DNA of 64,000 bases from an uncultured Bacteroidales bacterium (GCA_964462015.1 CAYWXI010000026.1:233-64232); one strand, 5' to 3'. Shown: positions 1 through 7,356, numbered from the stretch's first letter. Made by a program: numbers and translations. The notes: a model not told the origin generated them from the sequence alone.

Positions 1-1
1 T

Positions 2-154
2 CAAAAGAAAGCAAAAGAAATCATTGAAGAACGAGAGAAAATAATTGCATCAAATAGAGATAGCGAAATATTCTTCGATGCTATTTCAAATCCTGACAAA
101 CCAAACAAGGAATTGCTTTCAGCAGCAAAAGAATTTAATTCTTTGCTTTCATAA
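2..154 (+). CDS. DUF1778 (TacA-like) antitoxin, C-terminal part; the 5' end lies outside the window
   Basis: The frame is open from the window edge and translates to QKKAKEIIEEREKIIASNRDSEIFFDAISNPDKPNKELLSAAKEFNSLLS*. Its TAA overlaps the ATG of the downstream GNAT gene (TAATG at 152-156), the usual TacA-TacT layout. Confidence 0.7.
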   Translation, partial: QKKAKEIIEEREKIIASNRDSEIFFDAISNPDKPNKELLSAAKEFNSLLS

Positions 155-657
155 TGGAGCAATTAACAGAGGTTCTAAACCCAAAACACAGAAAAAAAGA
201 TTTTTCGTGTGGCAAGGATATTCTTGACAAGTATCTTCATCAACAGGCTAGTCAAGATATAAAACGAAAACTTTCAGTTTGTTTTGTGCTAACAGACTCA
301 AATTCAGAAATCATAAAGGGATACTACACTCTATCTAACAATAGTATATCTCAAGAATTTGTACCATTAAAGTTAAGGAAAAGACTTCCGAGCTCATACT
401 CTTCAATTCCAGTGACTTTACTTGGAAGATTAGCAATAGAAAAGAAATTTCAGAGAAAAGGTGTCGGTAAAATATTACTAATTGACGCTTTAAAAAGATG
501 TTATGAAATTTCAAAGAGTATTGGTTCTTATGCAGTAATTGTAGACCCATTAGATAATGATGCTGAAACATTTTATGGAAAATATGGTTTTATAAAATTA
601 CCAGACAGTGGAAAAATGTTTTTGACCATGATAACAATTAAGAGTCTATTTGAATAA
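154..657 (+). CDS. GNAT-family acetyltransferase toxin (TacT-like) of a type II TA pair
   Basis: 167 aa. It has a GNAT core (RLAIEKKFQRKGVGKILLIDAL, ETFYGKYGF) and is translationally coupled to the upstream DUF1778 ORF. Confidence 0.8.
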   Translation: MEQLTEVLNPKHRKKDFSCGKDILDKYLHQQASQDIKRKLSVCFVLTDSNSEIIKGYYTLSNNSISQEFVPLKLRKRLPSSYSSIPVTLLGRLAIEKKFQRKGVGKILLIDALKRCYEISKSIGSYAVIVDPLDNDAETFYGKYGFIKLPDSGKMFLTMITIKSLFE

Positions 658-666
658 AAATACTGT

Positions 667-725
667 GCCCAATAAATAGGCAGGATTATTCGGCGAAGCC
701 GCATTAATCTTGCCTAATGTTGGAC
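667..725 (+). other. Short attC-like site S1 (59 bp)
   Basis: Sequence is GCCCAAT-AAATA-GGCAGGATTA...TAATCTTGCC-TAAT-GTTGGAC. It is an imperfect palindrome with an inner CGGC-GAA-GCCG hairpin. The right end fits GTTRRRY. It starts 10 bp after the GNAT stop. Confidence 0.55.
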
Positions 726-1186
726 TATTACCCGTTTTTGGAGACTCATGTGTTTTCAATTGAGAAGTTTGGTTTTTCCGGGGAGAATGTTCCGGGAATT
801 GTTCACCGTGGAATGCTTTTGGTGAAGTAAAACCGTTAATTTTTCACTTGTGATCTTGTGATTTTCCATAAATCTGTTCGTAAACCAAATACCACTTTAA
901 TCCTTTCTGATAAACCGGGAAGGTGTAAATCTCATCTGTCGAGATATTCCGGGGATGTTTGTTGTAATACTCTATCAGACGCTTTGGCCCGTTAAGGTAA
1001 CTTATTATGGTTCGAGATGCAAGATTCTCTATCACCATACGTTGACGCATTTTTTCGAGAAGTGCATCTACTCCTTTTGATTTTAAAATACTTTTTTTGA
1101 CATAATACAAATTTTTTAATTTATCGAAATAAGTATAAACATTTTTTCTAACTTAGCCCCCCATGAAAGGGTTTAGTTCAACAGCA
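674..1186. repeat. Direct repeat copy 1 of a ~515-bp module (inner attC part + spacer + reverse int-N ORF + left arm of the long palindrome)
   Basis: Aligns by eye with 2533-3056. Positions 1047-1186 versus 2917-3056 showed no differences that I could see; the remainder is roughly 80 percent similar with small indels. Confidence 0.85.
844..1110 (-). CDS. Stand-alone tyrosine-recombinase N-terminal (SAM-like) domain protein, copy 1
   Basis: 88 aa with an apparent TTG start. The pattern LLEKMRQRMVIENLASRTIISYLNGPKRLIEYYNKHPRNISTDEIYTF matches the N-terminal helix bundle of Xer/IntI-type recombinases (LL..R..i......RT...Y......f......HP......ei..f). No catalytic domain follows in any frame. Confidence 0.55.
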   Translation of the reverse strand: MYYVKKSILKSKGVDALLEKMRQRMVIENLASRTIISYLNGPKRLIEYYNKHPRNISTDEIYTFPVYQKGLKWYLVYEQIYGKSQDHK

Positions 1187-1307
1187 AATCATAGCCCATA
1201 GCCGCTTTAGTGCTACCAAGACAAATGAGTATAAGCATAAACATACGATTAATCAAGAAACAAACTGCAAGTGAACGGCTACGGGCCATATTTGCAACAC
1301 GTTACCG
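1176..1307 (+). other. Long attC-like site L1 (132 bp)
   Basis: Left arm GTTCAACAGCAAATCATAGCCCATAGCCGC pairs with right arm GAACGGCTACGGGCCATATTTGCAACACGTTACCG. GTTCAAC fits RYYYAAC. The right end is GTT followed by the start of the next cassette. Confidence 0.6.
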
Positions 1308-1323
1308 CCAAGCAAGCCCCAAT

Positions 1324-1418
1324 GCGGAGAATGAAACAAGTATTCCGGGCAAAATTTGCGGAGAAAATAGCTTTTGCGGAGAATAAGCAGTATATTTGTC
1401 GCTTAATTTGCGGAGAAT
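1324..1418 (+). promoter_or_regulatory. Four direct GCGGAGAA(T/A) boxes upstream of and overlapping the Fic start codon
   Basis: GCGGAGAAT at 1324, GCGGAGAAA at 1358, GCGGAGAAT at 1376 and GCGGAGAAT at 1410, the last one containing the ATG at 1417. Spacing is 34/18/34 bp. Confidence 0.35.
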
Positions 1419-2538
1419 GAAAATTTACATACACGAAAAAGAAAACTGGACGGACTTCACTTGGGATAATAGACAAGTTATGTTAAAACTTGGAGAGGCA
1501 AGGAACCTGCAGGGAAAACTAATGGGTAAAATGGAATCCATAGGCTTTGATTTACAGGATGAAGCCGTATTGAATACACTAACTTTGGATGTTTTAAAAT
1601 CATTTGAAATTGAGGGTGATTATTTAGACAAAGTGCAAGTTCGGTCATCCATAGCAAAACGGCTTGGAATTGATATTGCAGGAGCGGTAGAATCAGAACG
1701 ACACGTTGAAGGTATAGTTGAGATGATGCTAAACGCCACACAACATTATGACTTACCCTTAACAAAAAACAGGCTGTTTGGATGGCATGCAGCACTATTC
1801 CCATCAGGCTGGAGTAATCTTTATAAAATAACTGTTGCTGATTGGAGAAAAGATACTACAGGGCCGATGCAGGTAGTTTCTGGTCCAATGGGGAAAGAAA
1901 AAGTTCATTTTCAGGCACCAAATTCTGACAGGGTAAAATTTGAAATGGAAGAATTCTTACAATGGCTTGAAGGCAAAACTGACATAGATTTAGTCCTTCA
2001 GGCAGCCATTGCACACTTATGGTTTGTGACAATTCATCCTTTTGATGATGGAAATGGAAGAATTGCAAGGGCCATCACCGATATGATATTGGCACGTTCA
2101 GACAATAGTAAGAGACGGTTTTATAGTATGTCTGCTCAAATCAGGATTGAAAGGAAACAGTATTATGAGAATCTTGAAAAAACACAAAAAGGTGATTCGG
2201 ACATTACAGAATGGATTCTATGGTTTTTACAATGTTTAATAAATTCAATTGAATCTACAGATGTTACTTTGTCCAGAATACTTTATAAAGCTGAATTTTG
2301 GAAGTTTCATTCCACTACAATTTTAAACGCAAGACAACAAAAAATAATAAAAAGACTACTCGATGGGTTTGATGGAAAGCTGACAACATCAAAATGGGGA
2401 AAAATTAATAAATGTTCACAAGACACAGCGCTTCGAGACATTCAAGACTTAATTCAAAAAAATATTTTAAGAAAGGAAGCAAGTGGAGGAAGAAGTACAA
2501 ACTATGAATTAGTAGAATTGCCAGGCGGTAACAAATAG
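1417..2538 (+). CDS. Fic family protein (AMPylase-type, with a Fic/DOC N-terminal domain)
   Basis: Contains the HPFDDGNGRIARA motif (HxFx[DE]GNGRxxR). The N-terminus MKIYIHEKENWTDFTWD is typical of this family. The track start at 1396 is a TTG, so the ATG at 1417 is preferred. Confidence 0.85.
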   Translation: MKIYIHEKENWTDFTWDNRQVMLKLGEARNLQGKLMGKMESIGFDLQDEAVLNTLTLDVLKSFEIEGDYLDKVQVRSSIAKRLGIDIAGAVESERHVEGIVEMMLNATQHYDLPLTKNRLFGWHAALFPSGWSNLYKITVADWRKDTTGPMQVVSGPMGKEKVHFQAPNSDRVKFEMEEFLQWLEGKTDIDLVLQAAIAHLWFVTIHPFDDGNGRIARAITDMILARSDNSKRRFYSMSAQIRIERKQYYENLEKTQKGDSDITEWILWFLQCLINSIESTDVTLSRILYKAEFWKFHSTTILNARQQKIIKRLLDGFDGKLTTSKWGKINKCSQDTALRDIQDLIQKNILRKEASGGRSTNYELVELPGGNK

Positions 2539-2601
2539 ACAGGATTATTCGGCGCAGCCGCATTAATCTTGTTCCTGAGGCCTCGGGATTGAACGTTACC
2601 C
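2524..2601 (+). other. Short attC-like site S2
   Basis: Sequence is GGCGGTAAC-AAATA-GACAGGATTA...TAATCTTGT...ATTGAAC-GTTACCC. The left end overlaps the Fic stop codon and is the exact reverse complement of GTTACCGCC at 1301-1309. The inner part is near-identical to S1. Confidence 0.6.
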
Positions 2602-3056
2602 GATTTTGGAGACTACTATGTGTTTTCAATTGCTAAGTTTGGTTTTGCGGGGAGGGATTATCCGGAGATTTTTCACCGTGGAATGTTTATGGTGAGGTAA
2701 AACTTATTATTTTTCAATTATGATGTTGTGATTTTCCATAAATCTACCCGTAAACCAAATACCACTTTAATCCTTTCTGATAAACCGGGAAGGTGTAGAT
2801 ATCATCTGTCGTGATTTTCCGCGGATGTTTGTTGTAATACTCTATCAGGCGTTTCGGCCCGTTTAAATAACTGATGATAGTTCGTGGCAAAAGGTTCTCA
2901 ATCACCATACGTTGACGCGTTTTTTCGAGAAGTGCATCTACTCCTTTTGATTTTAAAATACTTTTTTTGACATAATACAAATTTTTTAATTTATCGAAAT
3001 AAGTATAAACATTTTTTCTAACTTAGCCCCCCATGAAAGGGTTTAGTTCAACAGCA
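2533..3056. repeat. Direct repeat copy 2 of the ~515-bp module
   Basis: See copy 1 (674-1186). Confidence 0.85.
2744..2980 (-). CDS. Stand-alone tyrosine-recombinase N-terminal (SAM-like) domain protein, copy 2
   Basis: 78 aa paralog of 844-1110. In the codons for T-I-I-S-Y-L-N-G-P-K-R the two copies differ at 9 nucleotides and all are synonymous (ACC/ACT, ATA/ATC twice, TAC/TAT, CTT/TTA, CCA/CCG, AAG/AAA, CGT/CGC). Confidence 0.55.
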   Translation of the reverse strand: MYYVKKSILKSKGVDALLEKTRQRMVIENLLPRTIISYLNGPKRLIEYYNKHPRKITTDDIYTFPVYQKGLKWYLVYG

Positions 3057-3177
3057 CCTCATAGCACATGGCCACATTTGAGTCATCAAGAAAAATGAAT
3101 AGTAAATTAAACATACAGGAAATCAACATAAATTTGAGTAGCAAACGGCCACGTGCCATAGCTGCAACACGTTGACA
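3046..3177 (+). other. Long attC-like site L2 (132 bp)
   Basis: Left arm GTTCAACAGCACCTCATAGCACATGGCCAC pairs with right arm AAACGGCCACGTGCCATAGCTGCAACACGTTGACA. The arm sequences differ from L1 but pairing is retained (covariation). Confidence 0.6.
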
Positions 3178-3252
3178 ATCATTAAAATGATAATTATTAA
3201 AGGCGGAACCCGAAAGCCTATAAAGTAGGGATAAAATTAAAATCAATTTACA

Positions 3253-3825
3253 ATGAAAAAAATTATATTTAGTTTAATTATGGCTTTACTATCAACAATT
3301 TGCTTTGCACAAGAGAAGGGCACAAATGACATCTCATGTGGAGTCGGTTTTGCAACGACTAATGATCTTTTAAATTCTGTCGATGACATTATTTCAGATA
3401 TCTTTGGAGTATCTACCGCCAACATTTCGGCCACACCTGCAATCAGTTTAACATATAAGTATACTATTATGAATGATTGGCTATTATATGCAGATGGGAT
3501 TTATCAAACTATTAATAACGATCTTATAAAGCATGACACAATTATAGGTAATGCAAATAACAGATACTACACAATTGGATTTGGAACTGAATATCATTAT
3601 ATAAATAAGGATTGGTTTCAAATGTATTCAGGTGTAAGTTTAGCCTACACTTATCAAAATTCTAATTTTTCACAGTCATCAAACATTAAAGACGACACTG
3701 ACAACTATTTTAACTTTCAGGTTAATGCGGTAGGTCTTCGATTTGGAAAGCAACTTGCCGGAGTACTTGAATTAGGATTTGGGTATAAAGGAATTGCGAA
3801 TTTTGGTGTTTCTTATCAATTCTAA
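3253..3825 (+). CDS. Small outer-membrane beta-barrel protein (OmpW/porin-family-like)
   Basis: Has a signal peptide (MKKIIFSLIMALLSTICFAQ), alternating aromatic/hydrophobic strands and a C-terminal ...FGVSYQF. It starts 76 bp after L2. Confidence 0.6.
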   Translation: MKKIIFSLIMALLSTICFAQEKGTNDISCGVGFATTNDLLNSVDDIISDIFGVSTANISATPAISLTYKYTIMNDWLLYADGIYQTINNDLIKHDTIIGNANNRYYTIGFGTEYHYINKDWFQMYSGVSLAYTYQNSNFSQSSNIKDDTDNYFNFQVNAVGLRFGKQLAGVLELGFGYKGIANFGVSYQF

Positions 3826-4102
3826 TGTAATAAGAAAAACGATTTCTTTATTTCTCATGAATCTGAAGATAAAGAAAATTTGGCATTAAGTATCAACTGC
3901 TTTACCTTCTATTTGGATACAGCTCACCCACGGATAAAATCATATTATCGTTTTGAGTACCTGGAATTAAATTATATAAATCGAATTCCTTTAGGAACTT
4001 TTTTTAAAAATTTGTCATGAAAATATTTTTTTTATAAATTGCAAAATGATATTTACCGACAAATTTTTTAAAGATCAAACCACCGAGCGATATTGAGGTT
4101 TA

Positions 4103-4223
4103 GTTCAACAGCAAGTATATCACATAGCCGCGTAGCGGTCATTAAGACAAAGAATTGTAAAATTGATAATCGTACCAATCAGATTAAGGAACGGCTACAT
4201 GCCATACTTGCAAAACGTTAGCG
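4103..4223 (+). other. Long attC-like site L3 (121 bp)
   Basis: Left arm GTTCAACAGCAAGTATATCACATAGCCGCG pairs with right arm GGAACGGCTACATGCCATACTTGCAAAACGTTAGCG. It shares the flank GGTTTAGTTCAACAGCA and the ...TGCAAnACGTT end with L1 and L2. Confidence 0.6.
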
Positions 4224-4242
4224 GCAAGGTAATTAAGAGGAC

Positions 4243-4956
4243 ATGAAGGTATTAATCAATAAAGGAAGAAATTATTCTGGAAAATGGAATATTAACTATG
4301 TTTCAGTATCTAATAATATTTGTATAATGGATAACCATCGTGTTGCTTTTTGGTTTTGGATAAATAATTTAAATAAGACAAAAAAATATCGGATTATTCA
4401 TGCAGATAAGCACTTTGTCACTCAGGAAGGTTGCTTGAGTGAATGGAAACCAACTATACCTGAAAACCTTGAAGAATTGACATTGGAACAACTAATGGAA
4501 ATCGGTTATGAAAAAGAAAACTTTTTCTGTAAAACAATTCAATATGATAACTATCTAACGCTTTTTCATGAATATTATTCAGACAATGTTTTTGATTATT
4601 TTTTCTTTACTCATAATGTTGGTAAGTTGCCAACTAAATTAGATCATTTATATAATTGGGGCCCTAATGCACTTATTGAACAATTGCCTGACTTAATTTT
4701 TGATTGCGAAAGTAAATTAATTGTCAATATAGATTTGGATTACTTTTTTGTAAATGGACATATGCTATTATCTGATTATTCAATCAATCATATTCTTAAA
4801 ACTATAAAGAAAGGAATAGACAAAAAGAATGTGGAAATTTTAACCATAGCATTAAGTCCGGAAGATTGTGAAAATTGGACAAAAAGCATATCGTTTTTTA
4901 ACAAATATGTTTCTGAAATTTTAGAAATAGATAAAATTAAAATACCCAGCCGCTAA
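4243..4956 (+). CDS. Hypothetical protein, possibly UPF0489-like (family assignment from memory, uncertain)
   Basis: 237 aa. The motifs MDNHRVAFWFW and NIDLDYFF resemble UPF0489. It starts 20 bp after L3. Its last codons contain GCCGCTAAC, the reverse complement of GTTAGCGGC at 4217-4225. Confidence 0.4.
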   Translation: MKVLINKGRNYSGKWNINYVSVSNNICIMDNHRVAFWFWINNLNKTKKYRIIHADKHFVTQEGCLSEWKPTIPENLEELTLEQLMEIGYEKENFFCKTIQYDNYLTLFHEYYSDNVFDYFFFTHNVGKLPTKLDHLYNWGPNALIEQLPDLIFDCESKLIVNIDLDYFFVNGHMLLSDYSINHILKTIKKGIDKKNVEILTIALSPEDCENWTKSISFFNKYVSEILEIDKIKIPSR

Positions 4957-5027
4957 CATTTTAGGATTTATGGCTCAGTTGGCAAAAAAAAGCAAGAAAG
5001 CTTGAATCTTCTTGCTTTTTGTTTTAT
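4949..5027 (+). other. Terminal short attC-like site S3, overlapping a rho-independent terminator
   Basis: GCCGCTAAC-ATTTT-AGGATT...GAATCTT has the same AGGATT/AATCTT inner boxes as S1 and S2. It is followed by the hairpin AGCAAGAA-(loop)-TTCTTGCT plus TTTTTGTTTT (4991-5027). There is no similarity to array elements to the right of this point. Confidence 0.4.
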
Positions 5028-5274
5028 CAGCAAAAAGCAGGCAAATCTTAAATGTGCAATTCTCCTCCCCTTTTCCGGTTTTTAGGAAAAACATGACGTT
5101 TTCATGCAATTTTTTCTGCTAAAAATCCACTAAAATCACGGTATTTTCGTCCAAAATCAGCAAAAAATGAAAAAAAAATAAAAATTTTTAATTTTTTTTC
5201 GATCCTTATTATACTCATATTCTTAATAATACATTTTTTACAGTATCATGCTATAAATAATAATTAAAAAAATG

Positions 5275-5299
5275 TAGTACTATGTGTTGCATGGTACTA
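5275..5299. promoter_or_regulatory. 25-bp palindrome, candidate PadR operator
   Basis: TAGTACTATG-TGTTG-CATGGTACTA (10-bp arms, 1 mismatch) lies 22 bp upstream of the padR-like ATG. A TATATTTG (TAnnTTTG) box sits at 5309-5316. Confidence 0.35.
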
Positions 5300-5320
5300 A
5301 AAAAGTATTATATTTGTATC

Positions 5321-5674
5321 ATGAATTTAGAAAAAACAAAAGCACAGATGAGGAAAGGAGTACTCGAACTTTGTATCCTTTCAATAATATCGGAAAGCGA
5401 TGTTTATGCTTCTGATATTATCAATAAATTAAAAGAATCGAAATTAATAGTTGTTGAGGGGACATTGTATCCGCTGCTGACAAGGCTGAAAAACGAAGGC
5501 TTTTTAAGTTATCGCTGGGAGGAGTCGAAATCAGGCCCGCCACGAAAATATTATCAAATAACTGAAATCGGGAAAAAGGTTCTTGAGGAACTTAATATGA
5601 ACTGGCAGGAACTTGTTGAAGCAGTTAATAATATAACCATTAAAGAAAATTCTGAAGTAGAAACAAATCAATAA
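5321..5674 (+). CDS. PadR family transcriptional regulator
   Basis: Sequence RKGVLELCILSIISESDVYASDIINKL...GTLYPLLTRLKNEGFLSYRWEES...PRKYYQITEIGK is the PadR winged helix. The ATG at 5321 is preferred over the track start at 5282. Confidence 0.85.
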   Translation: MNLEKTKAQMRKGVLELCILSIISESDVYASDIINKLKESKLIVVEGTLYPLLTRLKNEGFLSYRWEESKSGPPRKYYQITEIGKKVLEELNMNWQELVEAVNNITIKENSEVETNQ

Positions 5675-5682
5675 GATATAAA

Positions 5683-7356
5683 ATGAAAAAAACATTCACA
5701 ATCAATGTTAGTGGAATAATATTTCACATCGACGAAGACGCTTACGAAAGATTAAACAATTATATAAACAGCGTAAAGAACCATTTTTCAAAAGCTGATG
5801 GAAAAGAAGAAATAATAAATGATATCGAAAGTAGGATCGCCGAGATTCTGCAGGAAAAAATTACCGATAGTAAGCAGGTAATAAATATCGAGGATATCAA
5901 ACACGTGGTTTCAATTATGGGACAACCATTTGAATTTGATGAAGAAGAACAGGAAAAAAAAGAGGAATCATATTATTACCAGCCAAGGCCTGTAAAACGA
6001 CTATACAGAGATACTGAAGACAGCGTAATTGCTGGTATTAGTAGCGGTATAGCTGCTTATTTTCATACCGATCCTATTTGGTTTCGAATTGGATTTATTA
6101 TAGCTCTATTTTCTGGATTCGGATTTTTCCTTTACCTGATCTTGTGGATTGCAATTCCTGAAGCAAGGACAACAGCCGAACGACTTGAAATGAGAGGCGA
6201 AAAGGTCAATATTTCCAATATAGAAAAATCCATTAGTGATGAAGTCAATAATTTAAAAGATAAGATCAACGATCTTACTAATCAGGCTAAGACCACCTAC
6301 AAAAAAAAAAGTTCACAATATAAACCCGGCTACGATCACGTACTAATTGCTTTTGGGAATATTTTCAAATATTTCTTTAAAGCAATTATTATTTTCATAG
6401 GAGTTATTTTATTTATTCTTGGAATTTCTCTCTTTATCACATTTCTCGCTGCTATCTTTGGTTGGGGAGGATTCGTTTTCAGCAATAGTTCAGATATTTT
6501 CTTTGGCCAATTCCCGGTATTTGCCGACAGGTTTCTTTATGGAGTTGCTAACATTGGTTTACTTAAAGTCGGACTTTTCTTCTTTATTGGTGTCCCTTTA
6601 ATTATGCTATTATATAGCGCAATAAGATTAATTTTCCACATCGACAGGATTAGATATATCGGTTTTACAGCATTTAATATTTGGATAGCCGGACTAATTA
6701 TAACTGCGTTTTTTGCTTTTAGAATTCTTAAAGATTTCAGACATCAGGATTATTCGGAAAAAGAATTTGTAATTGAACAACCCATGTCGGATATTTTGTA
6801 CCTTGATGTTAAACAAAACCGAGGGTATCATTATTATAATGATGAAGAATATGCGATTGTCTTTGATAATGATGTAATTATTACTGAAGATGGAAGATTC
6901 TACCGTGAACCTAAGCTAAGATTTGAAGAAAGCAATACAGATCAATATCAAATGATAATTTATTCGTATGCAAGAGGTAAAACACGAAGTGCTGCCCGAA
7001 AGCTTGCAGAGAAGACAATTTATAATATTAACCAAAGAGATAGCTTACTTACATTTGATTCATATTTAGAGCTGCCAAATAATGTAAATTGGAGAGATCA
7101 ATATTTAAAAATTGAATTATTAATACCTCTTGGAAAAAAAATTCATTTAAGTTATGATATGGACGAAATAATTGAATATCATTTTAATTATTATCCATAC
7201 AATTTACCCGGTAAAACATGGATTATGACTACGAACGGACTTAAAAGGGAAAAAAATGAATTTAGTTTTAAAGATGAAACAGAAAGCACTGGGAATATAA
7301 AAAAAGAAATTAGAAAGAATCGTTTTGTACTAAATATAATATCATGTAGCTTATAA
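5683..7356 (+). CDS. PspC domain-containing membrane protein
   Basis: Contains the PspC motif LYRDTEDSVIAGISSGIAAYFHTDPIWFRIGFIIALF..LYLILWIAIPEA and multiple TM segments. Pairing with PadR is common in Bacteroidota. Confidence 0.8.
   Translation: MKKTFTINVSGIIFHIDEDAYERLNNYINSVKNHFSKADGKEEIINDIESRIAEILQEKITDSKQVINIEDIKHVVSIMGQPFEFDEEEQEKKEESYYYQPRPVKRLYRDTEDSVIAGISSGIAAYFHTDPIWFRIGFIIALFSGFGFFLYLILWIAIPEARTTAERLEMRGEKVNISNIEKSISDEVNNLKDKINDLTNQAKTTYKKKSSQYKPGYDHVLIAFGNIFKYFFKAIIIFIGVILFILGISLFITFLAAIFGWGGFVFSNSSDIFFGQFPVFADRFLYGVANIGLLKVGLFFFIGVPLIMLLYSAIRLIFHIDRIRYIGFTAFNIWIAGLIITAFFAFRILKDFRHQDYSEKEFVIEQPMSDILYLDVKQNRGYHYYNDEEYAIVFDNDVIITEDGRFYREPKLRFEESNTDQYQMIIYSYARGKTRSAARKLAEKTIYNINQRDSLLTFDSYLELPNNVNWRDQYLKIELLIPLGKKIHLSYDMDEIIEYHFNYYPYNLPGKTWIMTTNGLKREKNEFSFKDETESTGNIKKEIRKNRFVLNIISCSL

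Follow-up and report, generated by a model that had tools for sequence, protein, structure and literature searches.

Is the row of small genes at the left end of a 64,000-nucleotide DNA stretch from an uncultured Bacteroidales bacterium (GCA_964462015.1 CAYWXI010000026.1:233-64232) an array of mobile gene cassettes, and which enzyme would have built it? The whole stretch, called the window below, has a G+C content of 32%. Positions 1-5000 contained five hairpin sites and no intact integrase. The sites between consecutive units were about 120-130 nucleotides (nt; long sites) or about 45-60 nt (short sites) and were framed by AAC and GTT. A Logan contig (L006), identical to the window start, prolonged the array by 1786 bp leftward and contributed two further long-type sites and a unit encoding a 428-residue lipoprotein. 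Exact-protein searches with Fic, TacT, and the ORF product of the last cassette matched only contigs of 0.9-2.5 kb that end at the repeats, and PadR had no match. Taking the explanation as a whole, we consider it probable that window positions 1-4957, with at least 1.8 kb to their left, form the distal end of an array of mobile gene cassettes on the chromosome of a low-GC member of the Bacteroidota. In this favoured account the array was built by recombination at the hairpin sites, and the likely enzyme is the tyrosine recombinase of a module that also encodes an IS91-family transposase.

Complementary boxes at the cassette ends

The initial annotation had stated that two units begin with 9-mers that are exact reverse complements of their own 3' ends, and the coordinates were found to be exact. 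In the Fic unit, GTTACCGCC (1301-1309) was matched by GGCGGTAAC (2524-2532), which overlaps the stop of the Fic open reading frame (ORF; 1417-2538). In the last unit of the array, which is UPF0489-like, GTTAGCGGC (4217-4225) was matched by GCCGCTAAC (4949-4957), which shares bases with the stop codon of ORF 4243-4956. All four 9-mers were single-copy in the 64-kb window, where base composition predicts 0.04 copies per strand. When the 1.5 kb after each unit start was shuffled in 20,000 trials, an AAC-anchored complementary run of at least 9 appeared in 62 of 20,000 shuffles for the Fic unit and in 12 of 20,000 for the last unit. Shuffles thus seldom attained the observed complementarity, which indicates that the box match is not due to chance.

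In both units the 9-mer was the core of a longer interrupted inverted repeat. The Fic pair, GTTACCGCCAAGCAAG and the reverse complement GTTACCGCCTGGCAAT, matched at 13 of 16 positions, and so did the last-unit pair, GTTAGCGGCAAGGTAA and GTTAGCGGCTGGGTAT. The two pairs shared an identical two-base interruption at positions 10-11, and the two positions at which they differed from each other were both compensated on the partner side. The lipoprotein unit showed a complementary run of 10 (14/16), and in the unit encoding TacA and TacT, GTTGGGCACAATAT matched the reverse complement of window 656-673 at 12/16. Four gene units of the array therefore obeyed the cassette rule, each with its own box sequence. 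The annotation had also proposed that GTTGAAC is approximated at the start of those units that have a long site at their end. This held for both repeat units, whose starts, GTTGGACTATTACCC (719) and ATTGAACGTTACCC (2588), each matched the reverse complement of GGGTTTAGTTCAAC at 10/16. It was weak for the outer membrane protein (OMP) unit, which begins with GTTGACA (run of 5, 7/16).

The features of the array are given below. R1 is a covariance model that within the window matched only the long sites L1-L3, and R2 is the model matched by short site S1.

2..657, plus strand: TacA (partial, stop codon 152-154) and the TacT GNAT toxin (154-657); Pfam TacA1 E 3e-9, GNAT families E 2e-7
656..733, plus strand: short hairpin site S1; cassette-specific left box TGTGCCCAAT (664-673), hairpin 674-718, right box GTTGGACTATTACCC (719-733); DNA fold −13.6 kcal/mol, z −3.05; R2 match 659-734, 40.5 bits
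719..1182, minus strand: repeat unit 1, an internally deleted recombinase and IS91-transposase module; bounded by GTTGGACTATTACCC and GGTTTAGTTCAAC; repeat family D1
1170..1312, plus strand: long hairpin site L1; left box GGTTTAGTTCAAC (1170-1182), covarying stem, variable loop, CAACAC-GTT with GTT at 1301-1303; right box GTTACCGCCAAG, which is the Fic cassette start; R1 94.5 bits; fold −16.7 kcal/mol on the bottom strand and −12.6 kcal/mol on the top strand
1301..2532, plus strand: Fic/DUF4172 cassette, ORF 1417-2538; start GTTACCGCCAAG, end CCAGGCGGTAAC; Pfam DUF4172 2e-28, Fic 2e-17
2521..2601, plus strand: short hairpin site S2; left box CCAGGCGGTAAC (2521-2532), hairpin 2530-2571, 93% identical to that of S1, right box ATTGAACGTTACCC (2588-2601); repeat family D4
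2588..3052, minus strand: repeat unit 2, a second internally deleted recombinase and IS91-transposase module (tblastn); Pfam Phage_int_SAM_4 in ORF 2744-2980
3040..3181, plus strand: long hairpin site L2; GTT 3171-3173, right box GTTGACAATC; R1 86.7 bits; bottom-strand fold z −2.75
3171..4109, plus strand: OMP beta-barrel unit, ORF 3253-3825, with 270 nt non-coding (3826-4096); Pfam OMP_b-brl E 0.003, below the curated cut-off
4097..4228, plus strand: long hairpin site L3; GTT 4217-4219; right box GTTAGCGGCAAG, which is the start of the last cassette; R1 82.1 bits; bottom-strand fold z −2.98
4217..4957, plus strand: last cassette, ORF 4243-4956, weak UPF0489 similarity; start GTTAGCGGCAAG, end CCAGCCGCTAAC; inverted repeat I7, 23 nt, 83%
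4984..5027, plus strand: terminator-like hairpin separating the array from the ordinary chromosome (inverted repeat I25; fold); flanking genes PadR (5282) and PspC (5683)

The two-gene TacA/TacT toxin-antitoxin cassette begins outside the window, at GTTGGGCACA (position 1556 of L006). The 3' end of the OMP unit is the module-type box GGTTTAGTTCAAC, and the unit's own 3' box was probably lost. The array terminates at AAC 4957, and no R1 or R2 match was found to the right of the last cassette in the window. At the array end (4958-5027) no recognisable hairpin site was seen, and the strong terminator-like hairpin follows. Upstream of the OMP ORF, window 3200-3231 resembled the Rfam DUF805b RNA motif (RF02914), with 31.7 bits compared with a gathering score of 35.6 (E 4e-6).

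The rule was also observed in unrelated arrays. A long-site pattern search of a metagenome collection gave at least 120 contigs from many biomes, and 29 loci had two or more long sites on the same strand, with co-oriented ORFs filling the gaps between sites. Among the 23 cassettes bounded by two long-type sites, a complementary run of at least 9 was present in 17 of the own start/3'-box pairs, compared with 1% of 506 non-own pairs. In those 17 the complementarity spanned 9-10 bases, and usually 10-11 of the first 12 bases matched. Three additional cassettes ending in a short site obeyed the rule, among them the one with GTTACAGGGCATT and AATGCCCTGTAAC. Position 11 of the cassette start was A in 106 of 110 sequences and usually faced C, giving the top strand an A.C opposition where the bottom strand has a G.T wobble. 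The cargo of these arrays was mostly of unknown function, together with proteins carrying a type IX secretion sorting tail, an SPFH protein, and an AAA_13 ATPase. The type IX secretion tail points to Bacteroidota.

The Fic cassette itself was compared in other contexts. At E below 1e-60, relatives of its protein numbered more than 8000; the best were 80-86% identical and most were on contigs of ~1.3 kb that break at repeats, and Fic/DUF4172 is probably a very widely spread cassette. The Fic cassettes of Labilibaculum manganireducens and of other contigs (82-86% identical) kept GTTACCGCCAAG and CCAGG(C/T)GGTAAC at their two ends, and the DNA outside GTT/AAC differed. Flanks were compared for four homologue contexts, and the boxes were as follows.

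Window: start GTTACCGCCAAGCA, end CCAGGCGGTAAC
Labilibaculum manganireducens, two strains: start GTTACCGCCAAGCA, end CCAGGTGGTAAC
L130: start GTTTACCGCCAAG, end GGCGGTAAC
L135: start not recognisable, end AAGCGGTAAC

At the level of sequence, this comparison shows the Fic unit to be mobile as a GTT...AAC block. The shuffles, the own-versus-other test, and the Fic homologues together support the proposal that the boundaries follow integron cassette rules, and the complementary boxes are supported as a footprint of integron-type cassette recombination; integron status itself is not demonstrated by them. Two Labilibaculum strains (L132 and L133) were also considered as a clean insertion or deletion of a cassette, and this was rejected, as one junction lay exactly at AAC and the other 16 nt inside a cassette. 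The Fic leader (window 1323-1416) carried TGCGGAGA four times, at 1323, 1357, 1375, and 1409; the rest of the 64 kb contained no further copy. The 34/18/34 nt spacing was retained in Fic homologues from three other sources, and the repeats look like an operator-like set.

Hairpin sites between the cassettes

The long site has a 15-pair stem, derived from an alignment of 114 sequences with compensatory changes in 14 of the 15 pairs, and conserved flanks GGTTTAGTTCAAC and CAA(A/C)(A/C)CGTT. The short site has 18 pairs (20-sequence alignment; compensatory changes in 12 of 18), and its AAC and GTT cores are predicted to pair. The AAC left core and the GTT right core were invariant across sites. 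Downstream sites matched R1 only from AAC onward, which indicates that the left boxes are cassette-specific. An Rfam scan of window 1-6000 gave no match on any hairpin site, and a search of a viral collection gave a chance-level match only.

These results bear on another explanation, namely that the complementarity is incidental. It would then come from chance 9-mers by terminator hairpins or hairpins like repetitive extragenic palindromes, or from the terminal inverted repeats of small transposons. The hairpins do lie just past stop codons, the usual position of a terminator. However, the shuffle statistics and the own-versus-other test oppose chance, and the stems covary across more than 100 contigs. 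Terminal repeats recognised by a transposase would be common to copies, whereas the boxes are unit-specific, and those of the Fic cassette were kept in different contexts. We therefore regard incidental complementarity as highly improbable. An RNA gene next to the sites, read from a Bacteroidetes-type promoter, was considered as well. Only promoter-like words were seen by eye in the site flanks, and the idea was set aside because DNA recombination accounts for the box rule and RNA does not.

A further A.C opposition, the second of two near-invariant ones, was present in the stem of 110 of the 114 long sites, and one base was unpaired in the right arm. Both near-invariant oppositions are A.C on the top strand and G.T on the bottom strand, the strand on which the three long sites of the window had the more stable fold.

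In an all-against-all comparison of the loci, 182 homology ends fell at GTT, and a second cluster of about 63 fell just after AAC. In the window, the homology of L1 to contig L126 (92%) ended at 1303, and the L2 hairpin recurred with about 90% identity and other flanks in L030 and L126. The initial annotation had read each unit as a former circle closed by crossover at G/TT. The complementary boxes agree with the circle; the crossover may lie at G/TT or at AAC on the far side of the hairpin, as breakpoints cluster at both. Homogenisation of sites within a lineage, as in the VCRs (Vibrio cholerae repeats), could mimic part of this breakpoint pattern and of the unlinking of hairpin and cassette.

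Whether a hairpin type belongs to the module was also considered. The long hairpin was rejected as a module part, since a given hairpin could accompany different module variants, and a given module flank could accompany different hairpins. A strict link of the short hairpin to the module was weakened by Labilibaculum, where a short hairpin is followed by an ordinary cassette. In 32 of 114 long-site loops (e.g., L011:4798-4940), an internal direct repeat of at least 8 nt was found ~37 nt apart, such as AGTGCTTCGT; these repeats could be binding sites of an accessory protein. A small extra stem-loop lay between the recombinase start and the long site (window 1150-1182, GCTACC-GAA-GGTTTAG; also in L062, L066, and L128). 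In some loci it was a perfect palindrome, GTTGAACTAAACCTCCC-GAAA-GGGAGGTTTAGTTCAAC.

The recombinase and IS91-transposase module

The two repeat units of about 460 bp lie between the gene cassettes, and their origin was seen by comparison with a full-length module on contig L003 of a metagenome-assembled genome. L003 came from a scan of a genome collection with the recombinase fragment, which matched three short contigs of one such genome. There, the gene of a 273-residue tyrosine recombinase overlaps that of a 391-residue IS91-family transposase. In repeat unit 1, recombinase residues 1-52 (1050-895) were fused to transposase residues 338-357 (918-859), with 88% and 85% identity to the L003 pair by tblastn; its ORF 844-1110 matched Pfam Phage_int_SAM_4, an N-terminal domain of phage-type integrases. 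In repeat unit 2, tblastn placed recombinase residues 2-52 at 2917-2765 and transposase residues 338-357 at 2788-2729. The junction of the recombinase N-terminus to transposase residues 338-357 indicates that the 460-bp units are internal deletions of the module. The L003 transposase scored 428 bits for NF033538 (cut-off 125) and had both Pfam domains, Zn_Tnp_IS91 and Y2_Tnp, as in Y2 HUH enzymes.

Intact modules adjoined arrays in more than 100 contigs and carried cassette boxes themselves. Wherever a metagenome locus extended far enough to the left of the GGTTTAGTTCAAC site, that stretch carried the recombinase and IS91 pair on the opposite strand. A recombinase-first search gave the same outcome: in L003, L004, and L138, a long site adjoined the recombinase start, and in L138 the Fic cassette and a short site adjoined the transposase end. 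The metagenome recombinases were 30-37% identical to that of L003, which indicates that the family is old. The module box pair consisted of GTTGAACnnAACC, 200-400 nt past the transposase stop, and GGTTnnGTTCAAC, before the long hairpin; the window versions of the module boxes are GTTGGACTATTACCC and ATTGAACGTTACCC, which the annotation had read as approximate GTTGAAC. As the module has its own box pair, it is bounded like a cassette and is itself a cassette. Its recombinase-side end was GGTTTAGTTC followed by AAC, and its transposase-side end was GTTGAACGGAACC, with the reverse complement GGTTCCGTTC followed by AAC. Both ends contain GTTC. A GTTC/CTTG tetranucleotide at the element end is a feature of the IS91 family, being its target and terminal tetranucleotide.

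Several modules showed further arrangements. L090 (547-6106) carried two tandem modules separated by a 1-kb cassette and a long site. Their protein matches were identical and so were their left-end flanks, short hairpin included; the two short hairpins were preceded by different left boxes. In L137 (9700-12460), a solitary module lay outside any array in a 7-Mb genome, with a hairpin site on each side and a box pair of 13/15. In L138 (6725-7978), a group II intron reverse transcriptase (RVT_1 and GIIM) stood in the gene row beside an intact module. Group II introns home to integron attC sites.

The solitary module also bears on a second alternative, in which the HUH transposase of the IS91 family acted alone. 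Rolling-circle, one-ended transposition of the ISCR type would capture neighbouring genes and leave rows of insertion sequence, gene, insertion sequence, gene, and the hairpins would be origin and terminator. The window order (module remnant, gene, module remnant, gene), GTTC at both module ends, and the hairpin on either side of the solitary module are in line with it. However, capture by a rolling circle gives no reason to expect that every captured gene is flanked by complementary boxes specific to its unit. Many arrays had consecutive cassettes with no intervening module (e.g., L015, with five sites), and the transposase was always paired with the recombinase. We consider this alternative very unlikely.

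The best solved-structure relative of the L003 recombinase was VchIntIA (2a3v), the Vibrio integron integrase (E 3e-29). The match came in two pieces and skipped IntI residues 177-241, where the recombinase has 23 residues, with ~40 missing. Its scores were 151 bits for TIGR02249 (integron integrase), compared with a cut-off of 265, and 85 for PRK15417, compared with 435. Among the 37 tyrosine-recombinase ORFs in about 500 kb of array-bearing loci, none was IntI-like. The catalytic motifs were locatable in 18 of them, with a GKGxKxR to HxLRH spacing of 66-82 residues, compared with about 108 in 2a3v. IS91-associated recombinases have been described as the closest homologues of IntI, without its insertion (bioRxiv 10.1101/542381).

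A third alternative is an ordinary sedentary chromosomal integron, in which a canonical IntI with attI lies left of the window and makes the cassettes. The modules would then be parasites in cassette form, or insertion sequences with attC sites as their target, and would have no role in forming the array. Integrons typically show the cassette rule, structured sites, and toxin-antitoxin cargo. An IS91-like element, ISShvi3, has been reported in a cassette-like position beside attC in a Shewanella integron (PMC9229058). No integron integrase was found adjacent to the array, whose left end is outside the recovered DNA, contigs breaking at repeats. Against an integron of this kind stand the lack of any IntI-like enzyme among the 37 ORFs and the window itself, where tblastn with the L003 recombinase gave no relative besides the two N-terminal fragments. 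A 13-kb Labilibaculum array locus (L132) was also without an integrase, the hairpin is not linked to the cassette, and the boxes are 14-16 nt, not 7. Complete integrons have been reported to be very rare in Bacteroidetes (IntegronFinder 2.0 preprint). A sedentary integron is thus a rather unlikely explanation of the array.

In the account that we favour, the cassette arrays would record site-specific recombination that acts, as it does in integrons, on hairpin sites in folded form. While a unit is free and circular, a single hairpin would lie between its two boxes, and the pairing of these boxes would create the core site of the recombinase. A tyrosine recombinase would then exchange strands inside the invariant GTT/AAC triplet and open the circle, leaving one box at each end of the integrated unit. 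By its association with the arrays, the candidate enzyme is the tyrosine recombinase of the module, in an operon with the IS91-family HUH transposase. More speculatively, the transposase may supply the single-stranded circle in which the hairpin folds. Both modules of the window are dead through internal deletion, so the array would depend on an intact copy elsewhere or be frozen.

Several points weigh against this account. The case is built wholly from comparative footprints, and a canonical intI could lie beyond the recovered left end. The OMP unit and 6 of the 23 metagenome cassettes broke the cassette rule. The hairpin 3' of the Fic cassette varied by context (two short types, one long, and none). 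Breakpoints occurred on both sides of the hairpin, and the hairpin was not inherited with the cassette; a simple integron mechanism predicts neither. Folding energy showed little strand bias over all 117 long sites, the bottom strand being better in 68. The pattern used for locus selection contained the module's own box, which biases the association of module and array. According to PMC7790495, the IntI helix, which the recombinase lacks, is needed for single-strand attC recombination.

More tentatively, we suggest as a possibility short of probable that Bacteroidota have a second, widespread, integron-like lineage of gene capture. Its recombinase would be an IS91-linked sister group of IntI, acting on folded hairpins without the extra helix and possibly on either strand. 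Single-stranded circles would come from the rolling-circle transposase, and arrays would be seeded and maintained by the module, acting as a self-mobilising cassette.

Comparison with integrons and related elements

Integrons are the textbook device of bacterial gene capture, and their origin and the making of their cassettes and sites are still open questions. The arrays described here resemble them in their rows of mostly single-gene, co-oriented cassettes with toxin-antitoxin and unknown-function cargo, and in structured imperfect-hairpin sites whose left core (...AAC) and right core (GTT...) are conserved. They also share the complementarity of the cassette start to the left box of its own 3' site and a recombinase gene that is directed away from the cassettes and encodes a member of the IntI-like subgroup of tyrosine recombinases. 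In contrast to integrons, the host belongs to Bacteroidota, where integrons are reported to be rare (IntegronFinder 2.0 preprint). The recombinase lacks the ~40-residue insertion specific to IntI, falls below the NCBI integron-integrase cut-offs, and is co-transcribed with the IS91 transposase, the pair being cassette-bounded inside the array and not on a fixed platform. The boxes measure 14-16 nt, compared with 7 nt in integrons, and have a fixed A.C at position 11, and a cassette is inherited without its hairpin. An attI was not identified; the window does not reach the left end of the array.

IS91-family insertion sequences with an extra tyrosine-recombinase gene include ISShvi3, ISSod25, ISAzo26, and others. 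As in the module, their recombinase lies directly upstream of a Y2 HUH transposase (Zn_Tnp_IS91 and Y2_Tnp), and their ends carry GTTC. One such element was reported beside attC inside a Shewanella integron (PMC9229058). In the literature on these elements we found no description of attC-like hairpins at both ends, of complementary terminal boxes, or of a position as the sole recombinase by arrays. Cassette arrays adjoining IS91-linked recombinases were likewise not found described in the full texts searched, which were those outside subscription journals. The elements that home to attC (the IS1111-attC group and the group IIC-attC introns) resemble the module in being mobile and in lying inside cassette arrays at inter-cassette sites. 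They differ from it in that they insert within attC by their own chemistry, without attC-type boxes or an IntI-like recombinase.

In the published view, gaining the IntI-specific helix made it possible to recombine single strands in folded form. The closest relatives of IntI, which have no such helix, here adjoin arrays that obey the cassette rule, and they are paired with a transposase known to produce single-stranded DNA. If a canonical IntI were found instead, the result would be large chromosomal integrons in Bacteroidota with IS91 and recombinase elements living as cassettes. The account favoured here, if true, would explain cassette arrays in an integron-poor phylum and would point to a large unrecognised pool of mobile accessory genes; close relatives of the Fic cassette already number in the thousands. 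If the module recombinases do the job, they would provide a testable model for a pre-integron or a parallel system.

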